Shown here in pieces: positions 565-10,109 of a stretch of DNA of 10,109 nucleotides (its first letter is position 1; each line of letters opens with the position of its first letter). The position numbers and the translations under genes are program-made. This DNA comes from a virus (lineage: Duplodnaviria; Heunggongvirae; Uroviricota; Caudoviricetes), in the IMG/VR virus record IMGVR_UViG_2648501392_000020. The stretch is one strand, 5' to 3'. A model generated the notes under the pieces. The model did no database searches, was not told where the DNA came from, and saw only the letters and a list, made by a program, of their open reading frames with translations.

Positions 565-782
565 GTTACATCCTCCCGCAATTAAGAGCGCGATATGATA
601 ACCAGACCGGGTCGGTCCAACAACGTATTACCCAAAATTCCAGTAATAAGTTCCAAATATTGCCGATATTTTAAGCAAAATGCTTATGCATGATTATTCA
701 TTCACGATATTTATAATTAAATGCGCATAACTTATTGAATTTAACCAACAAACATCGCTACAAATAACGTTAAAAATCGCAA

Positions 783-806
783 ATTAACTACACCATTAAC
801 TACACC
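783..806. repeat. Perfect tandem direct repeat, 2 x 12 bp (attaactacacc)
   Basis: Read directly: attaactacacc at 783-794 and again at 795-806, about 220 bp upstream of the smrA start. Confidence 0.5.
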
Positions 807-1297
807 GTTCGGTGCACTGTATGCAACAATGCGGAACAAATAGACACAAGCGACGGGCTATACCGTTATCATTTTCCGGCTATCCGCCATGAAGCTGGTG
901 GATGATCACGGATAAACCGTTATGGAAGTCCCCATATCGGCATCATGCCCACCAGCGAGATTAGTTATCTGGTTGCTGATGGGAGGCTGACGAACCTCGA
1001 TGCTAGGGTGCGCAAAACTAGTGAGACCTTTTTTCTCTGCAACAGGCCCATAATTCGCGTTTTCTTTGTCTGCCGTAAGGTGGGGGATTTTTGGCGGATC
1101 CAGCAATGGCGCGGATTTTGTGATTTTTTATAGATAGACCTCATCTATCAATCCCGTGCACACCTTCCCAAAAAAAGTTTTCGAACCTGCGGCGATGTGA
1201 ACAAGGGTAGGCGGGCGGTCCCATAAGCAATGAGGTGTAGGGATTTCTATCCCCCTGGGGGTATTAAACACCACCCGATTTAAATACCGTCTTTTTT

Positions 1298-1338: not shown

Positions 1339-1620
1339 TTAACGTCGTAACCGTTCCGGCTTCTTCCAGTGGTAAGTAATTTTTTCTTTCTCTTGGTACA
1401 TCTGCACGCGGCGACGGTACGACAACATCTCCAGAACTCTGGTGCGTATGTTGCGCATATCCACGCCGTTAAGCTCGATACCGTCACGGCGCATCACCTC
1501 AGCAACAACACGCACATAATTTTCAGCGGTCACGCTGTCCGGCTGCGTGGCCTGTTCGTCAGCCTGCTGGCTGATTCCGGTAACGCGGCGGATTAATCGC
1601 AGTATTTCGGCTTCTGTCAT
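1339..1620 (-). CDS. Hypothetical protein, 93 aa, last gene of the packaging cluster
   Basis: ATG at 1620 with a GGGGG Shine-Dalgarno about 5 nt upstream. Protein-like composition. No family recognised. Confidence 0.55.
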   Translation of the reverse strand: MTEAEILRLIRRVTGISQQADEQATQPDSVTAENYVRVVAEVMRRDGIELNGVDMRNIRTRVLEMLSYRRRVQMYQEKEKITYHWKKPERLRR

Positions 1621-2236: not shown

Positions 2237-2263
2237 CAATATCCCCACTTAGTTAAGGTTTCA

Positions 2264-2338
2264 GGTTGGTGTGTTGGTGTTATCTTTCCCTTTTTATTCA
2301 TAGAGATAGAGCGAAAAACAAAACCACCACCACCAACC
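2264..2338. repeat. cosB-like region: inverted GGTTGGTG / CACCAACC repeat blocks flanking an AT-rich spacer; candidate TerS-binding elements
   Basis: ggttggtgtgttggtg at 2264-2279 and accaccaccaccaacc at 2323-2338 on the plus strand, between cosN and the terS start. Differs from the lambda sequence at the equivalent position. Confidence 0.45.
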
Positions 2339-2369
2339 CGAAAAGGCTCATAAATAGCGAAAATCCGCA

Positions 2370-2381
2370 AGGTCGCCGCCC
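2370..2381 (-). other. cosN: lambda-type cohesive-end site (GGGCGGCGACCT on the minus strand) within cos region 2250-2437
   Basis: Minus strand reads GATCCGGCAGGCTACG-GGGCGGCGACCT-TGCGGATTTTCGCTATTTATGAGCCTTTT, near-identical to the lambda right end/left end junction as I remember it. Position upstream of the Nu1-like gene mirrors lambda cosN-cosB-Nu1. Confidence 0.85.
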
Positions 2382-2437
2382 CGTAGCCTGCCGGATCGCC
2401 GGAAAGGACCCGCCAGCCAGAACGGGCCCTAATTTCA

Positions 2438-2832: not shown

Positions 2833-3174
2833 TTACACACGAGCCAGCGGCTGAACAGAAATACCTGAGCCAACAAACGCGGCAACCTTTGCCGACAGTT
2901 CTCTTACAGACTCAGGCCAGTTCAGAGCATCAACATTTAAAACACCTGTCTTATAAACCTGTGCCTGTGTTTTTTTCGCTGTGTCGATTTGTACAGCGGA
3001 AACATAAACCGCTTTGCCTGCGCTCGTTCCATCCCATACCACTAGCGCACCAGTGGCATCTTCCTGCATCAGTGGCGTAAACGCAGGTATTACCCCTTTA
3101 TTGGCTGAAAATATCCCCAGCGTAGTAACCAGTGCTTCAGTGCCAGACATGAGTTCAGTGTAATGAGTAGCCAT
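2833..3174 (-). CDS. Head decoration protein, lambda gpD-like
   Basis: 113 aa. TPLMQEDATGALVVWDGTSAGKAVYVSAVQ...YKTGVLNVDALNWPE...AAFVGSGISV aligns with lambda gpD ([30 protein letters not shown]...YKSGTFRYEDVLWPE...TAFAGTAISIV). GGGGGAG Shine-Dalgarno, 9 nt after the capsid gene stop. Confidence 0.85.
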   Translation of the reverse strand: MATHYTELMSGTEALVTTLGIFSANKGVIPAFTPLMQEDATGALVVWDGTSAGKAVYVSAVQIDTAKKTQAQVYKTGVLNVDALNWPESVRELSAKVAAFVGSGISVQPLARV

Positions 3175-3183
3175 TGCTCCCCC

Positions 3184-4230
3184 TTAGCCAATGCGAACGG
3201 TAACAAAACGATTGATGCGGGCCGGTATTGGCTGTGGTGCTGAATGTGTCTGCACATATTCAATAGCCGGATCACCAGGCACAATATAGTTTTTCGGTGC
3301 AAGTTCGGCTTTAGTCAGCCCCATCCGAATTAGCTCCGGATCCTGAATACCGCCATAAGCGACAATCCCCTGAAGAGCCGTATTGCCAAGCACCATCAAA
3401 TCAGGATCAAGGAAATATTTTTCAGTTCCGTCCTCGTCGGTATAACGCCCGCTGTAAACAACAATCGCAACATCGCCCATATACCCTTTAAAACTCACCG
3501 AATCACCAAGGTCTTTAAGGGCCGTTTCCAGTTCGGAATTAGAACCTCGACGGGTATCCAGAGCCTCTTTTACAGCTCTGAATGAGCGGTATTTTTTCCA
3601 TACATTGCCGCCCATAATAATGATATTAGTGACTCCCTCACTAAATTCTGCGTAGCTCTCAATATCATCATTTGGGTCAAAAGATCCTTTATCCTTACCT
3701 GACCACTCAGCACCGCCAGACTGAGTGATGATATTTTGTGGTTTAATATTCCAGTCCAGCTCATAACGTTCAATACCATCGCCCACAATGATATTTTTCC
3801 CTGTTGTAATTGCCTGAACGGCAAGCCATTCAATACGTGCACGTATAGCTTTAGCCTGATTTACAATCGCCTGTTTAACTTTAATATTACGCGCCCCAAA
3901 AGCATTGTATTGCTCAGGTGATACACCAGCAGGGCGCACAGCTAGCTTATTTGGATCAATGCTGCTTTTCGGTTTCATATAGCCAGGGCGAATTGTTTTT
4001 GATTCGTATCCCTCATCTCGTGAAACTTTACTGCCCACCATAGGAGAGCAAAACGCCGCGATCGGGATATTTGGATCGTCGATCGTATCAAGAATAATGT
4101 CTCTCGATTCAAACATTACCGAGCGAGTGAAAAACAAACTGGTAAACAACGCATTTAATTTTTTTTGCACATCTTCAGCATTAGCCACCTGCACAAGCTG
4201 TGTAGGCGAATATAAATCAACCATACTCAT
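3184..4230 (-). CDS. Major capsid protein, lambda gpE family
   Basis: Long blocks align with lambda gpE (ITQSGGAEWSGKDK...DPNDDIESYA, RSFRAVKEALDTRRGSNSELETALKDLG, GDVAIVVYSG, MVLGNT). Start chosen at ATG 4230 (MSMVDLY, as lambda MSMYTT) with AAGAGG Shine-Dalgarno. The ORF track start at 4311 is an upstream extension. Confidence 0.9.
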   Translation of the reverse strand: MSMVDLYSPTQLVQVANAEDVQKKLNALFTSLFFTRSVMFESRDIILDTIDDPNIPIAAFCSPMVGSKVSRDEGYESKTIRPGYMKPKSSIDPNKLAVRPAGVSPEQYNAFGARNIKVKQAIVNQAKAIRARIEWLAVQAITTGKNIIVGDGIERYELDWNIKPQNIITQSGGAEWSGKDKGSFDPNDDIESYAEFSEGVTNIIIMGGNVWKKYRSFRAVKEALDTRRGSNSELETALKDLGDSVSFKGYMGDVAIVVYSGRYTDEDGTEKYFLDPDLMVLGNTALQGIVAYGGIQDPELIRMGLTKAELAPKNYIVPGDPAIEYVQTHSAPQPIPARINRFVTVRIG

Positions 4231-4396
4231 CCTCTTTACATTCATTACAAATAATTGTGAATATATTCTATTACCGATGTCTGCTATGCGAATACATGCA
4301 ACCAAGTGCAATGTTGTATAAAATCTGCCGTGACAACTTCAGTGCTGATAATTCGTGTTAATGTATTTACTTCCTTTGGTCGGGATTTATGTAGCA

Positions 4397-4433
4397 TGCC
4401 GGAAAATCTATTTTTTTCCGGCATTTTTTGTTT
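4397..4433 (+). terminator. Intrinsic-terminator-like hairpin oriented for the plus strand (10-bp stem, 7-nt loop, then TTTTTTGTTTG)
   Basis: tgccggaaaa (4397-4406) pairs with ttttccggca (4414-4423), followed by a T-run at 4424-4433. On the minus strand the stem is followed by non-U-rich sequence. Confidence 0.5.
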
Positions 4434-4440
4434 GCAGAAT

Positions 4441-4863
4441 TTAAAACGGTATATTATCGCCGTACGGTTCATCATTCCCTGACTGTTGTTTTGCCCTGTT
4501 CAATGCGTCAGTGGCCTGGCCCTGTTGACCTTTTTTGCCGCCCGGTCGCGCCGTTCTGGCACTGATTACACTATCTGCGATAACCTGCCAGCCCTGCCGC
4601 GTTTCGCCGTTCTGGCCTGTCCACTGGCTCACCTGCATGTTACCCGCCACGCTCAGGAGTTCGCCTTTGTGGTGTTTTGCCAGTGCGTCGGCCTGTCTGC
4701 CAAACGCCAGGACAGATAACCACATCGTCGCCGTTCCGTCATCTGCCTGGCTGCACGGCAGGGGAACCGCCATACTCGCCATCGCCATTTGTGTCCCTTT
4801 GCTAGTGGTCTTTAACTGCGGGTCAGCCACCAGCCGCCCGTAAGCCGCTATCTGTGCTGTCAT
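4441..4863 (-). CDS. ssb: Single-stranded DNA-binding protein (SSB)
   Basis: 140 aa. OB-fold SSB pattern (GRLVADPQL...W..V.AFGRQA...KG..L.V.G......W....G..R) and C-terminal acidic tip ending DNIPF (canonical DDDIPF). GGAGAGGTGG Shine-Dalgarno. Confidence 0.85.
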   Translation of the reverse strand: MTAQIAAYGRLVADPQLKTTSKGTQMAMASMAVPLPCSQADDGTATMWLSVLAFGRQADALAKHHKGELLSVAGNMQVSQWTGQNGETRQGWQVIADSVISARTARPGGKKGQQGQATDALNRAKQQSGNDEPYGDNIPF

Positions 4864-5113: not shown

Positions 5114-5325
5114 GCCCACCTGTGCCCACTTTTTCTACCCACTTTTCATGGTTTCCCACTTCGTCCCACCTGGGATTTTGTGGTTTTATATCGTACTGTT
5201 TCATAAGAATTTTTTTAGTGCCCACTTTTTGGGATGTATACACGTGGGAAAGTGGGCGATTTTGTTAAATTCCAGTTAAATTACCCACTATTCCCACTTT
5301 TAACGCCCACTTTTTACAGTGGGTG
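5114..5325. repeat. Iteron cluster (CCCACT(TTT), at least 9 direct and 3 inverted copies); probable island replication origin
   Basis: cccac(t/c) at 5115, 5125, 5138, 5155, 5165, 5221, 5284, 5293 and 5306; inverted agtggg/gtggga at 5244, 5251 and 5318. Lies immediately 3' of the helicase-initiator gene. Confidence 0.7.
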
Positions 5326-6720
5326 AACATCATCCCCATCGACGCAAATCACGCCGTCTTTTTCCAGTTTGGCTAACCATCGTTTAAGGTGTTTTGTGTC
5401 ATATCCCAGCTTTTTCATGTCATCACGTAGCAGCGGGATCGTGCATTTATCACCATGCTGTATACGTGACCGGATACAACCCCATAAAGCCGTGTGATTT
5501 TCCGTCTTGTTCCCGGCCTCCTCTATGCGCTCCAGTTCAGCAGGGGCGCGGGGAACGTCAATCACCACCATGGACACGATTTCTTCACCCTCAGGATCCG
5601 TAAATACCTCCACGCTCTTAAGGTCGTAGGCGCTTTCTTTTGGCTCCTCCGCGTCCTTCATCTTCTTACATGCTGCAACCAGCGCCGTAGCCTCTGAATG
5701 TTCCCGACTGATTCGGAACTCAGCATCAAGCGCCGCACGGAATGCACTGGAACCCCGCGCCCCTTTCGTCTCATCCTTGCCGGAATGATGCACAACCAGA
5801 ACCGTGGCCCCCGTGGCCTGCTTTATCGCGTCACACCCCTGGATAAACGCCCCCATGTCGCGGGAGTCATTTTCATCATGACCACCAAAGCAACGGGCCA
5901 GCGTGTCAATGACAATCATCCGCACCCTTTCGCCCGTTCTGTCCTGCACTAATCCGGCGGTCCTGATAACCTGCTCCACATAGTCAGGCGATGCAGGGAA
6001 GACAGGCGCGTTAACGATGCACAAATCCGTAACCACCTTGTCGTGGGTTATCTCCCACGCCTTAACGCGGCGTTTTACGCCCATACTGCCTTCGCCAGCG
6101 ATATAGATAACCGCGCCCTTACTTACCCTGCGGCCTCCCCATGCCATACCTGTGGCAACATGACACGACCAGGAAATAGCCAGGAACGATTTATAAGAAC
6201 CGCTGGCCCCGTAGGTGCTGCATAATGATTCAGCCGGAATAAGCCCCTTAATTACGTAGCTTTGCTGCGCGTCGAATCCCTCAGAACCCCATGAGATGGG
6301 AAGTGTGATTTTTCGCTTTCCGCCATTCATGACCAGACTTTCCCCGCGTTCCCAGGTTTCTTTAAGTCGGGGTAGTTGCTCGCTCCAGTCCTCCAGTAGT
6401 TCGAAATTCTCTGAAAGTAACCGCGCTTCCCGGACACCTGCGATCGCCAGTTTGGTGGCAATGGTCAGCATCTGCATATCGTCCAGGTTTCCGGCGCGTA
6501 TGACCTTTGCTCTGTATCGTCCTTCATCAACAATCTGTAAATTGTCCAGTTCGCTTAACTGATAACGGCCCAGGTAAACCGGAGGGATGGGATCGCCTGC
6601 TTTTTTGGCCTGTGCAATCATGTAATGTTCTGCAAAGGAGTGAGCATTATCACCCGCAAAAATAACCGCCTCAGTGTGTTTATCTTTCGGTAACAGTTTT
6701 ACGTTCGGTGCCAGTTTCAT
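5314..6720 (-). CDS. RecA-fold replicative helicase / replication initiator (RepA/DnaB-like, AAA_25-type) with C-terminal winged-helix-like domain
   Basis: 468 aa. Walker A GASGSYKS, Walker B-like MIVIDTL, HHSGKD motif. C-terminal basic helical segment (LLRDDMKKLGYDTKHLKRWLAKLEKDG) adjacent to the iterons. AGGGG Shine-Dalgarno. Confidence 0.85.
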   Translation of the reverse strand: MKLAPNVKLLPKDKHTEAVIFAGDNAHSFAEHYMIAQAKKAGDPIPPVYLGRYQLSELDNLQIVDEGRYRAKVIRAGNLDDMQMLTIATKLAIAGVREARLLSENFELLEDWSEQLPRLKETWERGESLVMNGGKRKITLPISWGSEGFDAQQSYVIKGLIPAESLCSTYGASGSYKSFLAISWSCHVATGMAWGGRRVSKGAVIYIAGEGSMGVKRRVKAWEITHDKVVTDLCIVNAPVFPASPDYVEQVIRTAGLVQDRTGERVRMIVIDTLARCFGGHDENDSRDMGAFIQGCDAIKQATGATVLVVHHSGKDETKGARGSSAFRAALDAEFRISREHSEATALVAACKKMKDAEEPKESAYDLKSVEVFTDPEGEEIVSMVVIDVPRAPAELERIEEAGNKTENHTALWGCIRSRIQHGDKCTIPLLRDDMKKLGYDTKHLKRWLAKLEKDGVICVDGDDVHPL

Positions 6721-7016
6721 TTTTTACCCCTGAATCCGTTAATCATGGTTTTCAGCTTCTGGATGTTTGCCCGTGCCCTGGCGTTGCTGGTGGACACGTT
6801 ATGCGGCGCGGTCTGTACCAGAGAAAAATCACGCCGGAACTGATAAACAGGCATCACGCAATCATATTCGTAACCTTCACGGCGGTAGGTTACGCGCCGT
6901 TCTTCCACGCCCTTAATCATTACCGTGCCGCCGTACTGGTCGCGGTAAATATCGCCGCGCGTAAATTTAGGGTGAGTGTTGCCACTGGCAGTTAAGCCAG
7001 AATATTTAAGTTTCAT
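6717..7016 (-). CDS. Hypothetical protein, 99 aa
   Basis: ATG at 7016. Stop overlaps the helicase start by 4 nt (translational coupling). No family recognised. Confidence 0.55.
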   Translation of the reverse strand: MKLKYSGLTASGNTHPKFTRGDIYRDQYGGTVMIKGVEERRVTYRREGYEYDCVMPVYQFRRDFSLVQTAPHNVSTSNARARANIQKLKTMINGFRGKK

Positions 7017-7021
7017 TATTT

Positions 7022-7255
7022 TTATTCTCCGGTGTGCTGTTCTTTATATCTGTCGTGCAATAGATCTATTTCTTGCAGTTCCATTATTACAGGCTCAAGA
7101 AGCGTTATTAATGCTGTGGCAATTCTTGATTTTTGTTTGTCGCGTTCATTGTCGCCAAGTGTTTCAAGCCATATGCGTAATATTTCCATCATGCTTTCAC
7201 TGTGAGAAAGTGCAAGAAATGCGCGGTCTATTGTTTCGAGGTAAATATCACGCAT
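7022..7255 (-). CDS. Hypothetical protein, 77 aa
   Basis: ATG at 7255 preceded by GGTGGGG. The ORF track start at 7267 is GTG. 5-nt gap to the next gene. Confidence 0.5.
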   Translation of the reverse strand: MRDIYLETIDRAFLALSHSESMMEILRIWLETLGDNERDKQKSRIATALITLLEPVIMELQEIDLLHDRYKEQHTGE

Positions 7256-7256
7256 A

Positions 7257-7478
7257 TTAATCCCCACCCGTTGTTTTTCTTAAAACAGTTTCCGTTACGA
7301 AATCAGCATAGTTAGCGGCGATATCAAGAATATTTAGCCCTGTATCCCTATGCTCATCAGTGCAAAGAAAGAAAAAAGCCACCCGCATAATTTCAGATAT
7401 TGACGAAAGCGCATCAGCTGCATTATCAGGAACGCCGGAAAATTCCTGTTTCAGGGAATTAAAACGATCATCACGCAT
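7257..7478 (-). CDS. Hypothetical protein, 73 aa
   Basis: ATG at 7478 with AGGGGGG Shine-Dalgarno. Stop sits 1 nt before the next start. Confidence 0.55.
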   Translation of the reverse strand: MRDDRFNSLKQEFSGVPDNAADALSSISEIMRVAFFFLCTDEHRDTGLNILDIAANYADFVTETVLRKTTGGD

Positions 7479-7836
7479 GTTTACCCCCCTGAATGACCTG
7501 ATAACCGCAACTGGTCAGCAACTCGATAAATTCCGGCAGTGTGCCGAAACAGCAATCATCACGCAGCCGTTCGCAGGATACCTCGACGCCGTTTTCGTAG
7601 TGACTCACCATACATCCGGTAAAATGCAGATCATCATCGTGATGGCTCGTTGACGGCTTAATCAGTCGCGCACGTTCCGCCAGTTCCAGCAATGCTTCAA
7701 CGCTTCCGGCAATTGCACCATCCGGCAGGTGATAATTACGCACTATGCGCCCGTTCTCCACATTGACCAGCAACTGCCCGGTAAATTTCTCGTCAAACTG
7801 AATGCTGTTAAGGTCAGAAATTGACAGGTTATGCAT
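7471..7836 (-). CDS. Hypothetical protein, 121 aa
   Basis: ATG at 7836 with perfect AGGAGG 6 nt upstream. The ORF track start at 7854 lacks a Shine-Dalgarno. 8-nt overlap with the downstream gene. Confidence 0.6.
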   Translation of the reverse strand: MHNLSISDLNSIQFDEKFTGQLLVNVENGRIVRNYHLPDGAIAGSVEALLELAERARLIKPSTSHHDDDLHFTGCMVSHYENGVEVSCERLRDDCCFGTLPEFIELLTSCGYQVIQGGKHA

Positions 7837-8053
7837 GGTGCACCTCCTGCACATCAGCCATGATAATTTTTCCGGCCTTATCCAGTGCCTGATCGGCTTT
7901 TAGCTGCACAAATGCTAAATAATGGAAGATGCATTCTGATTCTCTGGCTGCGTGTTTATGCGCCCTGTCAGCAATAACAGAAATATCAATAAGCGCGTGC
8001 ATCAGCGTAGTGAGCGCGGCGGCTGCTGCGTCCGGTGTGGTTTTATTGCACAT
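7829..8053 (-). CDS. Hypothetical protein, 74 aa
   Basis: ATG at 8053 with GGGGGTAGG upstream. Overlaps neighbours at both ends as part of the coupled operon. Confidence 0.5.
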   Translation of the reverse strand: MCNKTTPDAAAAALTTLMHALIDISVIADRAHKHAARESECIFHYLAFVQLKADQALDKAGKIIMADVQEVHHA

Positions 8054-8249
8054 GGCCTACCCCCTGGCGAATACGGGCAGCGAATACCATCACGCAGCCA
8101 TCAGGAGATTGCTGACGCGCTTCCTGTTCGCTGGTGGCCTCAATGGTAATCACGCGCGGTTGTGCCGTGCTCAGGGCGATAAAACGCCAGATGTATTTAT
8201 TCAGGTTGTACGAGTCCCGCCCTTGCGGGTGTGTGGTATGATTTAACAT
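8043..8249 (-). CDS. Hypothetical protein, 68 aa; first gene of the leftward operon (shares frame with the tail of the 471-codon ORF)
   Basis: Internal ATG at 8249 with GAGGT Shine-Dalgarno 5 nt upstream, about 100 nt downstream of a TTGACA-N17-TAAAGT promoter-like element. Confidence 0.4.
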   Translation of the reverse strand: MLNHTTHPQGRDSYNLNKYIWRFIALSTAQPRVITIEATSEQEARQQSPDGCVMVFAARIRQGVGHVQ

Positions 8250-8347
8250 AGCTACCTCGATACTTTCGCTATCGTTGGTGGTTAGAAGCCCCGTTACTGC
8301 TCCTACAGTGCGGGGTTTCGTCGTTTCTGCACCTTGCATTAACAAGG

Positions 8348-8424
8348 TGTAAGTAACTTTATTTATAGGTGGCTTACATGTCAATGCTTTTATGTAAGAC
8401 TTTTTATGTGTATATTGTCTTACA
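8348..8424. promoter_or_regulatory. Divergent promoter/operator region: leftward promoter (-35 TTGACA 8379-8384, -10 TAAAGT 8356-8361 on minus strand) overlapped by four CTTACA/TGTAAG half-sites
   Basis: Half-sites tgtaag 8348-8353, cttaca 8373-8378, tgtaag 8393-8398, cttaca 8419-8424. Central palindrome CTTACA-N14-TGTAAG covers the -35. A TATATT -10-like hexamer at 8411-8416 faces the plus-strand gene. Confidence 0.5.
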
Positions 8425-8445
8425 CTTTCATTGAGAGGATTACAG

Positions 8446-8751
8446 ATGGCTACAGGTTCAAAAAACGCAAAATCACAATCACTGACAGCTCGGATCCCGC
8501 ATGATGTTATTGAAGGCATGGAATCCGTAAAACTGGACGGTGAAAGCAACGCCGGATTCATCGTAACCGCCATGCGCGGTGAAATCGCCCGCCGCCAGGC
8601 AGAAGGAAGCGGAGAAAACCTCCTGGTTTCTTCGCTCGATGCACTGGCGCAGGTGGAAAAAATCGGAGTCAAAGCAGCCGAGGAGATCGGGCAACTCATC
8701 ACCGTCGCGCGTGAAGAACTCCAGCGTCGCAAGGCCAAAGAGCAGGAGTAA
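8446..8751 (+). CDS. Ribbon-helix-helix-like small DNA-binding protein (candidate island regulator/repressor), 101 aa
   Basis: ATG at 8446 with GAGAGGA Shine-Dalgarno. N-terminal SLTARIPHDVIEGMESVKL...NAGFIVTAMRGEIARRQ fits a strand-helix-helix pattern; the C-terminal half is charged and helical. Composition is clearly more protein-like than the antisense frame. Confidence 0.6.
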   Translation: MATGSKNAKSQSLTARIPHDVIEGMESVKLDGESNAGFIVTAMRGEIARRQAEGSGENLLVSSLDALAQVEKIGVKAAEEIGQLITVAREELQRRKAKEQE

Positions 8752-8808
8752 CCATCACCAGCGCCGTGGTGTGAGTAACTACGGCGCATTGCTATGCAGG
8801 ACAACACA

Positions 8809-8982
8809 ATGACCGATAAAGAATTGACCAAAACATTATCACCGACACGGAAAAGACGGCGCAGAAAGATAGAGCATGAATCAGAAAGATTCGCGCCATG
8901 TGCTTTTGCCCTTGAGCAATTTCTTAAAGAGTACAGGGAAAAGCGCTCATTGCAGGTATGGCAACGAACTGAACCAGACTGA
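8809..8982 (+). CDS. Small basic hypothetical protein (about 57 aa)
   Basis: ATG at 8809 (alternative 8794) with weak AGGA upstream. Lies between the RHH gene and the plus-strand terminator. Lys/Arg/Glu-rich composition. Confidence 0.35.
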   Translation: MTDKELTKTLSPTRKRRRRKIEHESERFAPCAFALEQFLKEYREKRSLQVWQRTEPD

Positions 8983-9061
8983 TTGCATTGCCCACCAGCC
9001 GCAAATGTGGCATTGTTGGCGATGCTCATGCGTTGGGGATAACGTGTAGCTTGTGTCGAGG

Positions 9062-9090
9062 GGCCACCGTAGCGGGTGGCCTTTGTTTTG
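9062..9090 (+). terminator. Intrinsic terminator for the plus-strand RHH operon
   Basis: GGCCACC (9062-9068), loop gtagcg, GGTGGCC (9075-9081), then TTTGTTTTG (9082-9090). Confidence 0.6.
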
Positions 9091-9458
9091 CCTGTTATCC
9101 GGCAATTGTGGCGCTTCGCCACACGGTTGATATAATCCCACTGCTCAGATTCATTTTTTGCGCAGTAGGTTAATTGTTCACAAAGGCGCTCCGGCAACGG
9201 GGCGCTTTTTGTTTTTATTAGTTTGTAGAAACCTGACTCAGAGATAATGCTCATATTCTGATTGCCGTCAGGGGTGTAAGTTAAATTTACTCCCTTTTTA
9301 TCATCAAACATCTGCAACGCTCTGGCGTTAACAATATTGGTTTCACTCCCGCCAGTAAGGCCGGAAATAACCGGAATAATTTCGGCAAAATTTTGCAGAT
9401 TCTGTTTTTCAGGACGAACGAAGCCCCGCCCTTGTTCGGGAGAATATCCAGTATTCAT
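9084..9458 (-). CDS. Bro-N / antirepressor-like ORF, 5' protein-like portion only; the frame stays open to 8043, so the 3' end is undefined
   Basis: ATG at 9458. Segment GNQNMSIISESGFYKLIKTKSAPLPERL resembles the Bro-N core (ISESGLY.LI.RS..P.A). No plus-strand ORF competes in 9180-9458. Downstream, the same frame has Ser/Cys/Arg-rich antisense-like composition. Confidence 0.4.
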
Positions 9459-9510: not shown

Positions 9511-9699
9511 TTAGTGAACTGCCTCGCAGCTTTCCTTCCATGCCAGAACTTCGGATAAAGACCAGCCAACGGAACGACCGCCGAGCTTACGCCGTGATGG
9601 GAATTGTCCGGTTTTTTCCAGGCGGTACCGACATGAACGGCTCAGGCCTGTAAGTTGCTGACATTCTTTTTCACGTATAAAGCGATCTGTGCTTAACAC
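9511..9699 (-). CDS. alpA: AlpA-family transcriptional regulator/excisionase-like protein, 62 aa, GTG start
   Basis: HTH block ECQQLTGLSRSCRYRLEKTGQFPSRRKLGGRSVGWSLSEVLAWKE matches the AlpA pattern. GTG at 9699 is preceded by AAAGGGGGA. The upstream ATGs at 9807 and 9867 lack a Shine-Dalgarno and would give an atypically long N-terminus. Confidence 0.65.
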   Translation of the reverse strand: MLSTDRFIREKECQQLTGLSRSCRYRLEKTGQFPSRRKLGGRSVGWSLSEVLAWKESCEAVH

Positions 9700-10109
9700 A
9701 ATTCCCCCTTTGATATTTCTTAAAGAGTTATTTGGTGTCCTATTGTGTTGTGGTGCTTCGGATTGTGTCAGGGTGTTTATGGAATGGCAAACACTGGCGG
9801 CGGTCATTTTACAGAAGTGTGGTAATGAGAATAAAAACTCTTTTAATTCATTGTGGTGCAAAGGCATAAAATTCTGTTTTTACGCCTTTTTTACATGTTT
9901 TTAAGAGTGATTCGCCAATGTACAAAAAGCCAGTAAAACGACTGAAAATCAACTTTTTAGGGTGTCAGTCAGATGTTAATCAAGTTTGTTCCAGATTGTT
10001 CGCCGTTGTTCGTCGTGGTGTCTCGTTGTTTCACGTTGTGTCAGTTCTAAAAAATCGCAAAAAAAATTATATTTCTCTGGCTATTGGCAGTGTGGTTACG
10101 TTTTTGTGA

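Follow-up and report, generated by a model that had tools for sequence, protein, structure and literature searches.

Lambda gpE- and gpD-type genes as the probable capsid morphogenesis module of an Escherichia coli phage-inducible chromosomal island

The stretch of DNA analysed here, 10,109 nucleotides of a virus assigned to the Caudoviricetes (IMG/VR record IMGVR_UViG_2648501392_000020) and hereafter referred to as the window, covers much of a 10.5-kb phage satellite island of Escherichia coli. Positions 2833 to 4230 hold two adjacent genes, termed E and D, which encode relatives of the lambda major capsid protein gpE and the lambda head decoration protein gpD, respectively. The island is very likely an ordinary phage-inducible chromosomal island (PICI) of the Gram-negative type, and this segment its ‘capsid morphogenesis' module; the best guess is that its E and D proteins enter or supplement a shell built by the helper phage. 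A preliminary description of the sequence had noted the pair and the lack of portal, protease, scaffold and large terminase genes, and proposed that the island builds an appropriately sized capsid from its own E and D on the helper portal and protease. The observation is correct and lies well above chance; the mechanism is unsupported.

The E protein belongs to the lambda gpE family with a predicted HK97-type fold, and shell formation itself is likewise a prediction. The E reading frame (3184-4311, minus strand) is intact, and its product matched Pfam Phage_cap_E (E=1e-40, 140 bits against a curated cut-off of 22.9) and PHROG 29 ‘major head protein' (4e-91), while lambda gpE aligned with it over the full length at 42% identity. 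An AlphaFold model of E, with a mean predicted local distance difference test score (pLDDT) of 78.6, gave template modelling (TM) scores of 0.89 to lambda gpE (7SJ5) and 0.91 to 3BQW. The latter entry is c1499, the capsid homologue of the PICI EcCICFT073, to which E is 55% identical, and is presumably a crystal of unassembled protein. Translation of E probably begins at the ATG at 4224. A ribosome-binding site, AAGAGG, precedes this codon by 7 nt, and the start agrees with both the choice of the Prokaryotic Genome Annotation Pipeline (PGAP) and the homologues. The position given in the preliminary description, 4230, corresponds to another ATG of the same frame, two codons before the probable start.

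The D protein matched Pfam HDPD (4.6e-15, 56 bits against a curated cut-off of 29.1) and PHROG 49 ‘head decoration' (1.9e-26), and is 40% identical to lambda gpD and 54% identical to EcCICFT073 c1500. Its top match in the PDB was the ‘Head decoration protein' chain of 1TD0, which we take to be phage 21 SHP; lambda gpD was also matched. In the alignment with lambda gpD the N-terminal 29 residues of D remain unpaired. The preliminary description was right that gpE-like and gpD-like genes reside in a phage-satellite island. Two apparent E-D fusions were rejected as such. P0005, a single record of 463 aa from a Logan assembly, has a sense codon where E should stop. It looks like the outcome of one altered stop codon, which may reflect either a mistake in sequencing or genuine read-through, while P0075 looks like a frameshifted lambda read.

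The window sequence is contained identically in three complete E. coli chromosomes. In NZ_CP148357.1 the edges of the island are smrA/dgcM on one side and int followed by abgR on the other, and a 26-nt exact direct repeat flanks the element, the two copies lying 10,536 bp apart. Scans of open reading frames (ORFs), Pfam and PHROG profiles revealed no portal, protease, scaffold or large terminase gene in the window, and PGAP annotation of the complete genome placed neither these nor tail or lysis genes in the island or adjoining it. No portal, protease or large terminase gene lies nearby because the 10.5-kb island ends at the attachment (att) repeats, with the core genes smrA on one side and abgR on the other. 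The absence reported in the preliminary description is therefore genuine, and its reservation that head genes might lie just beyond the window is answered by flanks that consist of core genes.

The gene content of the island is that of a classical PICI. It comprises an integrase gene and att repeats at a site free of prophage, an AlpA regulator beside int, and capsid morphogenesis genes in company with a small terminase (TerS) and a cos core, as in the component list of PMC10085698. At 10.5 kb, without tail, lysis, portal or large terminase genes, it also falls within the size range of ∼10-15 kb for such elements. The portal, protease, head-tail connectors and large terminase that define a capsid-forming PICI (cf-PICI) are lacking, and the chromosomal location between smrA and abgR differs from that of helper-embedded PICIs, which lie inside a late gene of the helper prophage, although relatives with the same E-D module do sit inside prophages. 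The layout (int, alpA, replication, capsid morphogenesis, then cos with terS or rpp) is already known and is canonical for enterobacterial PICIs. ‘Capsid morphogenesis' and terS are among the five core PICI components in SatelliteFinder (De Sousa et al. 2023, PMC10085698), and E. coli accounts for nearly every island that has the full five. Similarly, 21 of 29 reference Gram-negative PICIs carry a capsid gene, which is not needed for transfer (PMC10111431). The E/D pair itself, at a DNA identity of at least 80%, was found in 397 of 5,426 complete E. coli genomes. The suggestion that the architecture is an unusual intermediate thus does not hold, as the same pair is present in EcCICFT073 and a capsid gene is standard among Gram-negative PICIs. 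The discovery value of the layout is small: it has been in the literature since 2018, programs that detect satellites already rely on it, and the structure of one of the proteins has been solved by crystallography.

E, D and TerS represent old satellite lineages and not recent captures, as none has a close phage counterpart. Among 50,697 phage genomes, searched at the DNA and protein levels, no E or D above 42% identity and no TerS above 48% was detected. When 5.8 billion proteins were searched with E the matches fell into two groups, the first at 52-100% identity (359-759 bits) and the second at no more than 44% (at most 280 bits). Average-linkage clustering of 34 E sequences separated 21 of island type from 13 of phage type, with a minimum identity of 0.49 inside the island clade and a maximum of 0.47 between clades. 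Six further island-clade E genes had surroundings that were checked (from Kluyvera, Cedecea, Edwardsiella, Lelliottia, Serratia and E. coli NRG857c), and all six lie in islands with int, alpA and primase genes. Three of these islands are inserted in prophage late genes, among them the Cedecea relative in a Phage_cap_E gene and the Edwardsiella relative in a portal gene. A cross-species genome scan with a single-protein query returned only four loci, such queries reaching close relatives only. Gene order also distinguishes the two groups, with E preceding D in 12 of 12 islands (the spacer being 8-14 nt in the ten measured), whereas D precedes E in 4 of 4 phages or prophages, namely lambda and three helper prophages.

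The PICI of Lelliottia sp. SL45 (locus 10001-13337) encodes, in addition to E and D, a 447-aa S49 protease/scaffold of the gpC type, 50% identical to lambda C, and thus some islands hold more of the head pathway. The same element has an Rpp homologue 39% identical to RppA and a gene with a Phage_HCP domain near alpA; neither a portal nor a large terminase gene was seen in it.

Both E and D are under strong purifying selection, about as strict as would be expected of essential structural genes. In cross-genus comparisons the ratio of non-synonymous to synonymous substitution rates (dN/dS) was ∼0.03-0.05 for E and ∼0.07-0.12 for D, with low dN and saturated dS. As dS was saturated, a closer, unsaturated pair was added, the comparison with the E. 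coli NRG857c island 11capE. This gave a dN/dS of 0.06 for E (38 synonymous and 9 non-synonymous differences) and 0.115 for D (16 and 6, respectively). Such selection implies that the E and D proteins are used, and keeps open some role for them in the capsid shell.

The packaging module downstream of the pair combines a lambda-type cleavage site with a terminase subunit of the island's own. The lambda cosN 12-mer occurs exactly and once in the window, between the second alpA-like gene and terS, against a chance expectation of ∼0.001 (2 x 10,109 / 4^12). A second cosN of the kind found in EcCICFT073 was not present, since only the one match was obtained at up to two mismatches. The block on one side of cosN, GGGTCCTTTCCGG, has its counterpart in the terminal lambda sequence immediately before cosN, and its position marks it as a putative cosQ. 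The core as far as TCGCTATTTATGA aligns with lambda cos and with the functional cos1 of EcCICFT073, and lies directly upstream of the packaging gene; past this core the sequence departs from both, at the place where lambda has cosB. TerS is 37% identical to lambda Nu1 in an alignment that reaches ∼10 residues from either end and covers the C-terminal part which, in lambda, binds gpA. Its best phage match was N15 gp1 at 47.6%.

What is known of EcCICFT073 and of lambda suggests that a lambdoid cos helper would switch on alpA, upon which the island would excise and replicate. By analogy with lambda and with the work on Rpp (PMC6739421), TerS would bind the island-specific cosB beside the lambda-identical cosN and recruit the helper large terminase, which would cut the shared cosN. 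Island concatemers would be packaged from the island cos into heads that use the portal, protease/scaffold and tail of the helper. Four copies of the island amount to 42 kb (4 x 10.5), ∼87% of the 48.5-kb lambda genome, and would fit a normal lambda head. Packaging of such tetramers would match the behaviour of EcCICFT073, all packaged DNA of which was phage-sized (PMC6092414). The E and D proteins would enter or supplement the helper-built shell, mattering only with some helpers or under some conditions.

This role of E and D is one that we infer and offer as a best guess, which itself counts against it, and published experiments also weigh on the other side. When c1499 and c1500 of EcCICFT073 were each deleted, transfer and interference with lambda were unchanged (Fillol-Salom et al. 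2018, PMC6092414), and the pair proved unnecessary with each of lambda, phi80 and the CFT073 prophage. Among the post-origin genes of EcCICFT073 over-expressed singly, only c1503 (rppA) blocked lambda (2019, PMC6739421). Of two TerS-carrying islands tried in 2018, one displayed no detectable transfer and the other transferred at low frequency (PMC6092414). The evidence on E and D is thus two-sided, selection indicating that they are used and the sole experiments, in a sister lineage, that they are dispensable. What E and D do bears on whether there is a continuum between satellites that only steal capsids and satellites that build their own.

In a stronger version of the preliminary proposal, E and D of the island form, on the portal and protease/scaffold of the helper, a smaller capsid of island size that admits island DNA and excludes the helper genome. 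This version would make the element a partly capsid-forming satellite, and is quite unlikely. It draws on the intactness of E and D, their complete fold and the strong purifying selection on them, on a lineage that is satellite-specific and not a recent capture, and on the addition of the gpC-type gene after E-D in the Lelliottia PICI. There are also precedents, as SaPIbov5 has a capsid homologue, Ccm, that gives small capsids, and PmCI172, which also has a capsid homologue, produces capsids of small size (both as quoted in PMC6092414). A further point concerns two segments of E, one at residues 1-25 (∼4150-4224), modelled as the N-terminal arm, and one at residues 101-125 (∼3850-3924). Conservation in these segments was 0.47 and 0.48, respectively, in the island clade compared with 0.68 and 0.70 in phage gpE, while elsewhere along E both clades are equally conserved. 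In other HK97-fold capsid proteins the scaffold binds at the N-arm, and the variability would fit adaptation to different helper scaffolds, although this is only a hint. Against a small capsid stand the phage-sized DNA packaged by the sister island, a contradiction, and the deletions of c1499 and c1500 in that island; dispensability for transfer is what the preliminary description had itself named as fatal to its proposal. In addition, the island is near a quarter of the lambda genome in length and fits normal heads as a tetramer, and its sequence holds nothing that predicts capsid size. A broader grade of partly capsid-forming satellites, in which E and D, with the gpC-type protease/scaffold in some relatives, make the shell and cement on a helper portal and scaffold, either wholly or as mosaic shells and with their natural helpers, is unlikely. 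If true, it would explain a selected, satellite-only E/D lineage with reversed gene order, despite its being dispensable with lambda and phi80 in laboratory experiments.

It has also been proposed, by the authors of PMC10111431 and bioRxiv 2022.07.18.500453, that such genes serve as a backup. In this case E and D would be a spare copy, or an instrument of interference, for helper-embedded islands whose insertion breaks the helper capsid gene, and would be merely carried along in the chromosomal island described here. The positions of the Cedecea and Edwardsiella relatives, in a capsid and a portal gene, are consistent with the proposal. However, embedded islands also interrupt portal genes and others for which a second E would be of no use, and both the window island and EcCICFT073 are chromosomal, yet their E and D are equally conserved. 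Since over-expression of single EcCICFT073 post-origin genes other than rppA also left lambda unblocked, a spare-copy or interference function is very unlikely. That the pair is no working module but left over from the head region of a decaying lambdoid prophage, as the presence of just two of about ten lambda head genes might suggest, is extremely improbable, and a defective prophage is ruled out by the intact att repeats and integrase, the full PICI gene set, the island-type E-D order, the purifying selection on intact E and D, and the lack of any E or D more than 42% identical among the phage genomes searched.

The features of the window are listed in Table 1. In order of transcription the island comprises int, alpA, the divergent YlcI/YnfO gene, the Icd-like gene, four small ORFs, the DUF4222 gene and the RepA helicase gene, followed by a small ORF, ssb, E, D, the second AlpA-like gene, cos, terS and the ORF for the 93-aa protein (orf93). 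In the model PICI the AlpA beside int is both activator and excision factor. The second alpA-like gene begins 11 nt past D, and follows D also in the Kluyvera, Cedecea and Serratia islands and in 11capE; its product is a candidate regulator of the late operon. The AT-rich spacer upstream of E may be the start of this operon, which would contain the capsid and packaging genes. The hairpin in the spacer is a perfect 11-bp one (ATGCCGGAAAA...TTTTCCGGCAT) with a T-run on the non-coding strand only. A 471-aa ORF at 8043-9458 (minus strand) is almost certainly spurious, the true genes being the Icd-like gene at its 3' end and the YlcI/YnfO gene on the opposite strand.

At the smrA-side end, ∼95 nt inward of the att core are conserved with EcCICFT073 and the O157 Z1834 island, and the same ∼95 nt hold a doubled TTAACTACACC motif. 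The ∼530 nt between the att core and orf93 (808-1338) contain no convincing gene, and display patches conserved with EcCICFT073 and the O157 islands. PADLOC found no defence genes among ten small or unassigned ORFs, Rfam yielded no structured RNA in the window, and NCBIfam gave names only to the Icd-like and YlcI/YnfO proteins.

Table 1. Features of the window, numbered from its first nucleotide.
Feature	Position	Strand	Evidence and remarks
att core, smrA-side island end (AATTAACTACACCATTAACTACACCG)	782..807	not assigned	26-nt exact direct repeat; second copy past the window, beside int
93-aa protein, conserved, last island gene	1339..1620	-	PHROG 1561 5e-56; 86% identical to the last gene of EcCICFT073
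Nu1-type small terminase (TerS), 180 aa	1694..2236	-	Pfam Phage_Nu1 9e-24; PHROG 57 6e-53
Presumed island-specific cosB, TerS-binding region between cosN and terS	2237..2347	-	Inferred from position
cos core	2348..2411	-	Conserved block GGGTCCTTTCCGG; exact lambda cosN GGGCGGCGACCT at 2370-2381; conserved terS-side flank TCGCTATTTATGA
Second AlpA-family DNA-binding protein, 127 aa	2438..2821	-	Pfam Phage_AlpA 1.4e-8; PHROG 2790 2e-47
gpD-family head decoration protein (D), 113 aa	2833..3174	-	Profile and identity evidence; ORF intact
gpE-family HK97-fold major capsid protein (E), 346 aa	3184..4224	-	Profile, identity and model evidence
AT-rich spacer, ssb to E	4225..4440	-	11-bp hairpin 4396-4424 and one sigma-70-like site 4292-4265; pattern matches only
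Single-strand DNA-binding protein (SSB), replication module	4441..4863	-	Pfam SSB 1.6e-15
RepA-family helicase, island replication protein	5314..6720	-	Pfam AAA_25 6e-43; PHROG 2850 4e-183
DUF4222 protein	6717..7016	-	Profile match; same place upstream of the replication gene in EcCICFT073, Z1834 and 11capE
Icd-like cell-division inhibitor, 68 aa	8043..8249	-	NCBIfam NF033153, 1e-19; PGAP annotation
YlcI/YnfO-family protein, divergent	8446..8751	+	NCBIfam NF041551, 7e-20; GC skew flips sign here
AlpA regulator beside int	9511..9699	-	Pfam Phage_AlpA 1.3e-17; PGAP start
Tyrosine integrase, 3' end	10067..10109	-	Genome annotation; remainder past the window; 87% identical to EcCICFT073 integrase

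Comparison with characterized systems places the island among the satellites. E and D belong to the same Pfam families as lambda gpE and gpD, and E shares the fold of gpE and aligns with it over its full length. The identities are, however, only ∼40-42%, the order of the two genes is reversed with respect to lambda, and the island is without counterparts of B, C, Nu3, W, FI, FII and A. Psu of P4 is a satellite-encoded decoration protein, and like P4 with Psu and SaPIbov5 with Ccm the island is a satellite that has a capsid homologue or decoration protein in the absence of a full head module. Neither Ccm nor Psu has a sequence relationship to the island E and D; Ccm and the P4 proteins Sid and Psu give or stabilise small capsids, whereas EcCICFT073 showed no change in size. 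The cf-PICIs, such as EcCIEDL933, resemble the island in a PICI-like left half (int, alpA and replication genes), a capsid gene and a small terminase of their own. They differ in making their own small capsids and in adding portal, maturation protease, head-tail connector, HNH and large terminase genes, none of which is present in the window island.

The closest parallels are with other E. coli PICIs. A re-reading of the CFT073 genome showed that EcCICFT073 has the same gene order from int to orf93, with E then D at the same position, and a lambda-identical cosN in a cos core directly upstream of the packaging gene. In contrast, its E and D represent another sub-lineage (55% and 54% identical to those of the window, respectively), and D is followed by the unrelated c1501 where the window island has the AlpA-like regulator. 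EcCICFT073 also packages via RppA, compared with a full Nu1-type TerS in the window island, and replicates with a primase instead of a RepA helicase. The E-D-AlpA block is most similar to that of 11capE, a helper-embedded island in E. coli NRG857c (PMC10111431), with 95% DNA identity and 8 amino-acid differences in E and 6 in D. The 11capE integrase is only 45% identical to that of the window island, and HEPN/DUF262 cargo (11capE locus 6386-8102) occupies the place of cos-terS-orf93. In the Cedecea island the E-D-AlpA block is followed directly by a gene for a TIR-domain protein (locus 12106-13254), where the window island has cos-terS. The cos-terS part, for its part, is ∼86% identical at the DNA level to a PICI of O157:H7 located beside phoQ (Z1834), which bears E and D of the c1499 type. 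On these sequence comparisons, the island is a mosaic of modules that had been described before, in EcCICFT073, in 11capE and in further PICIs of E. coli.

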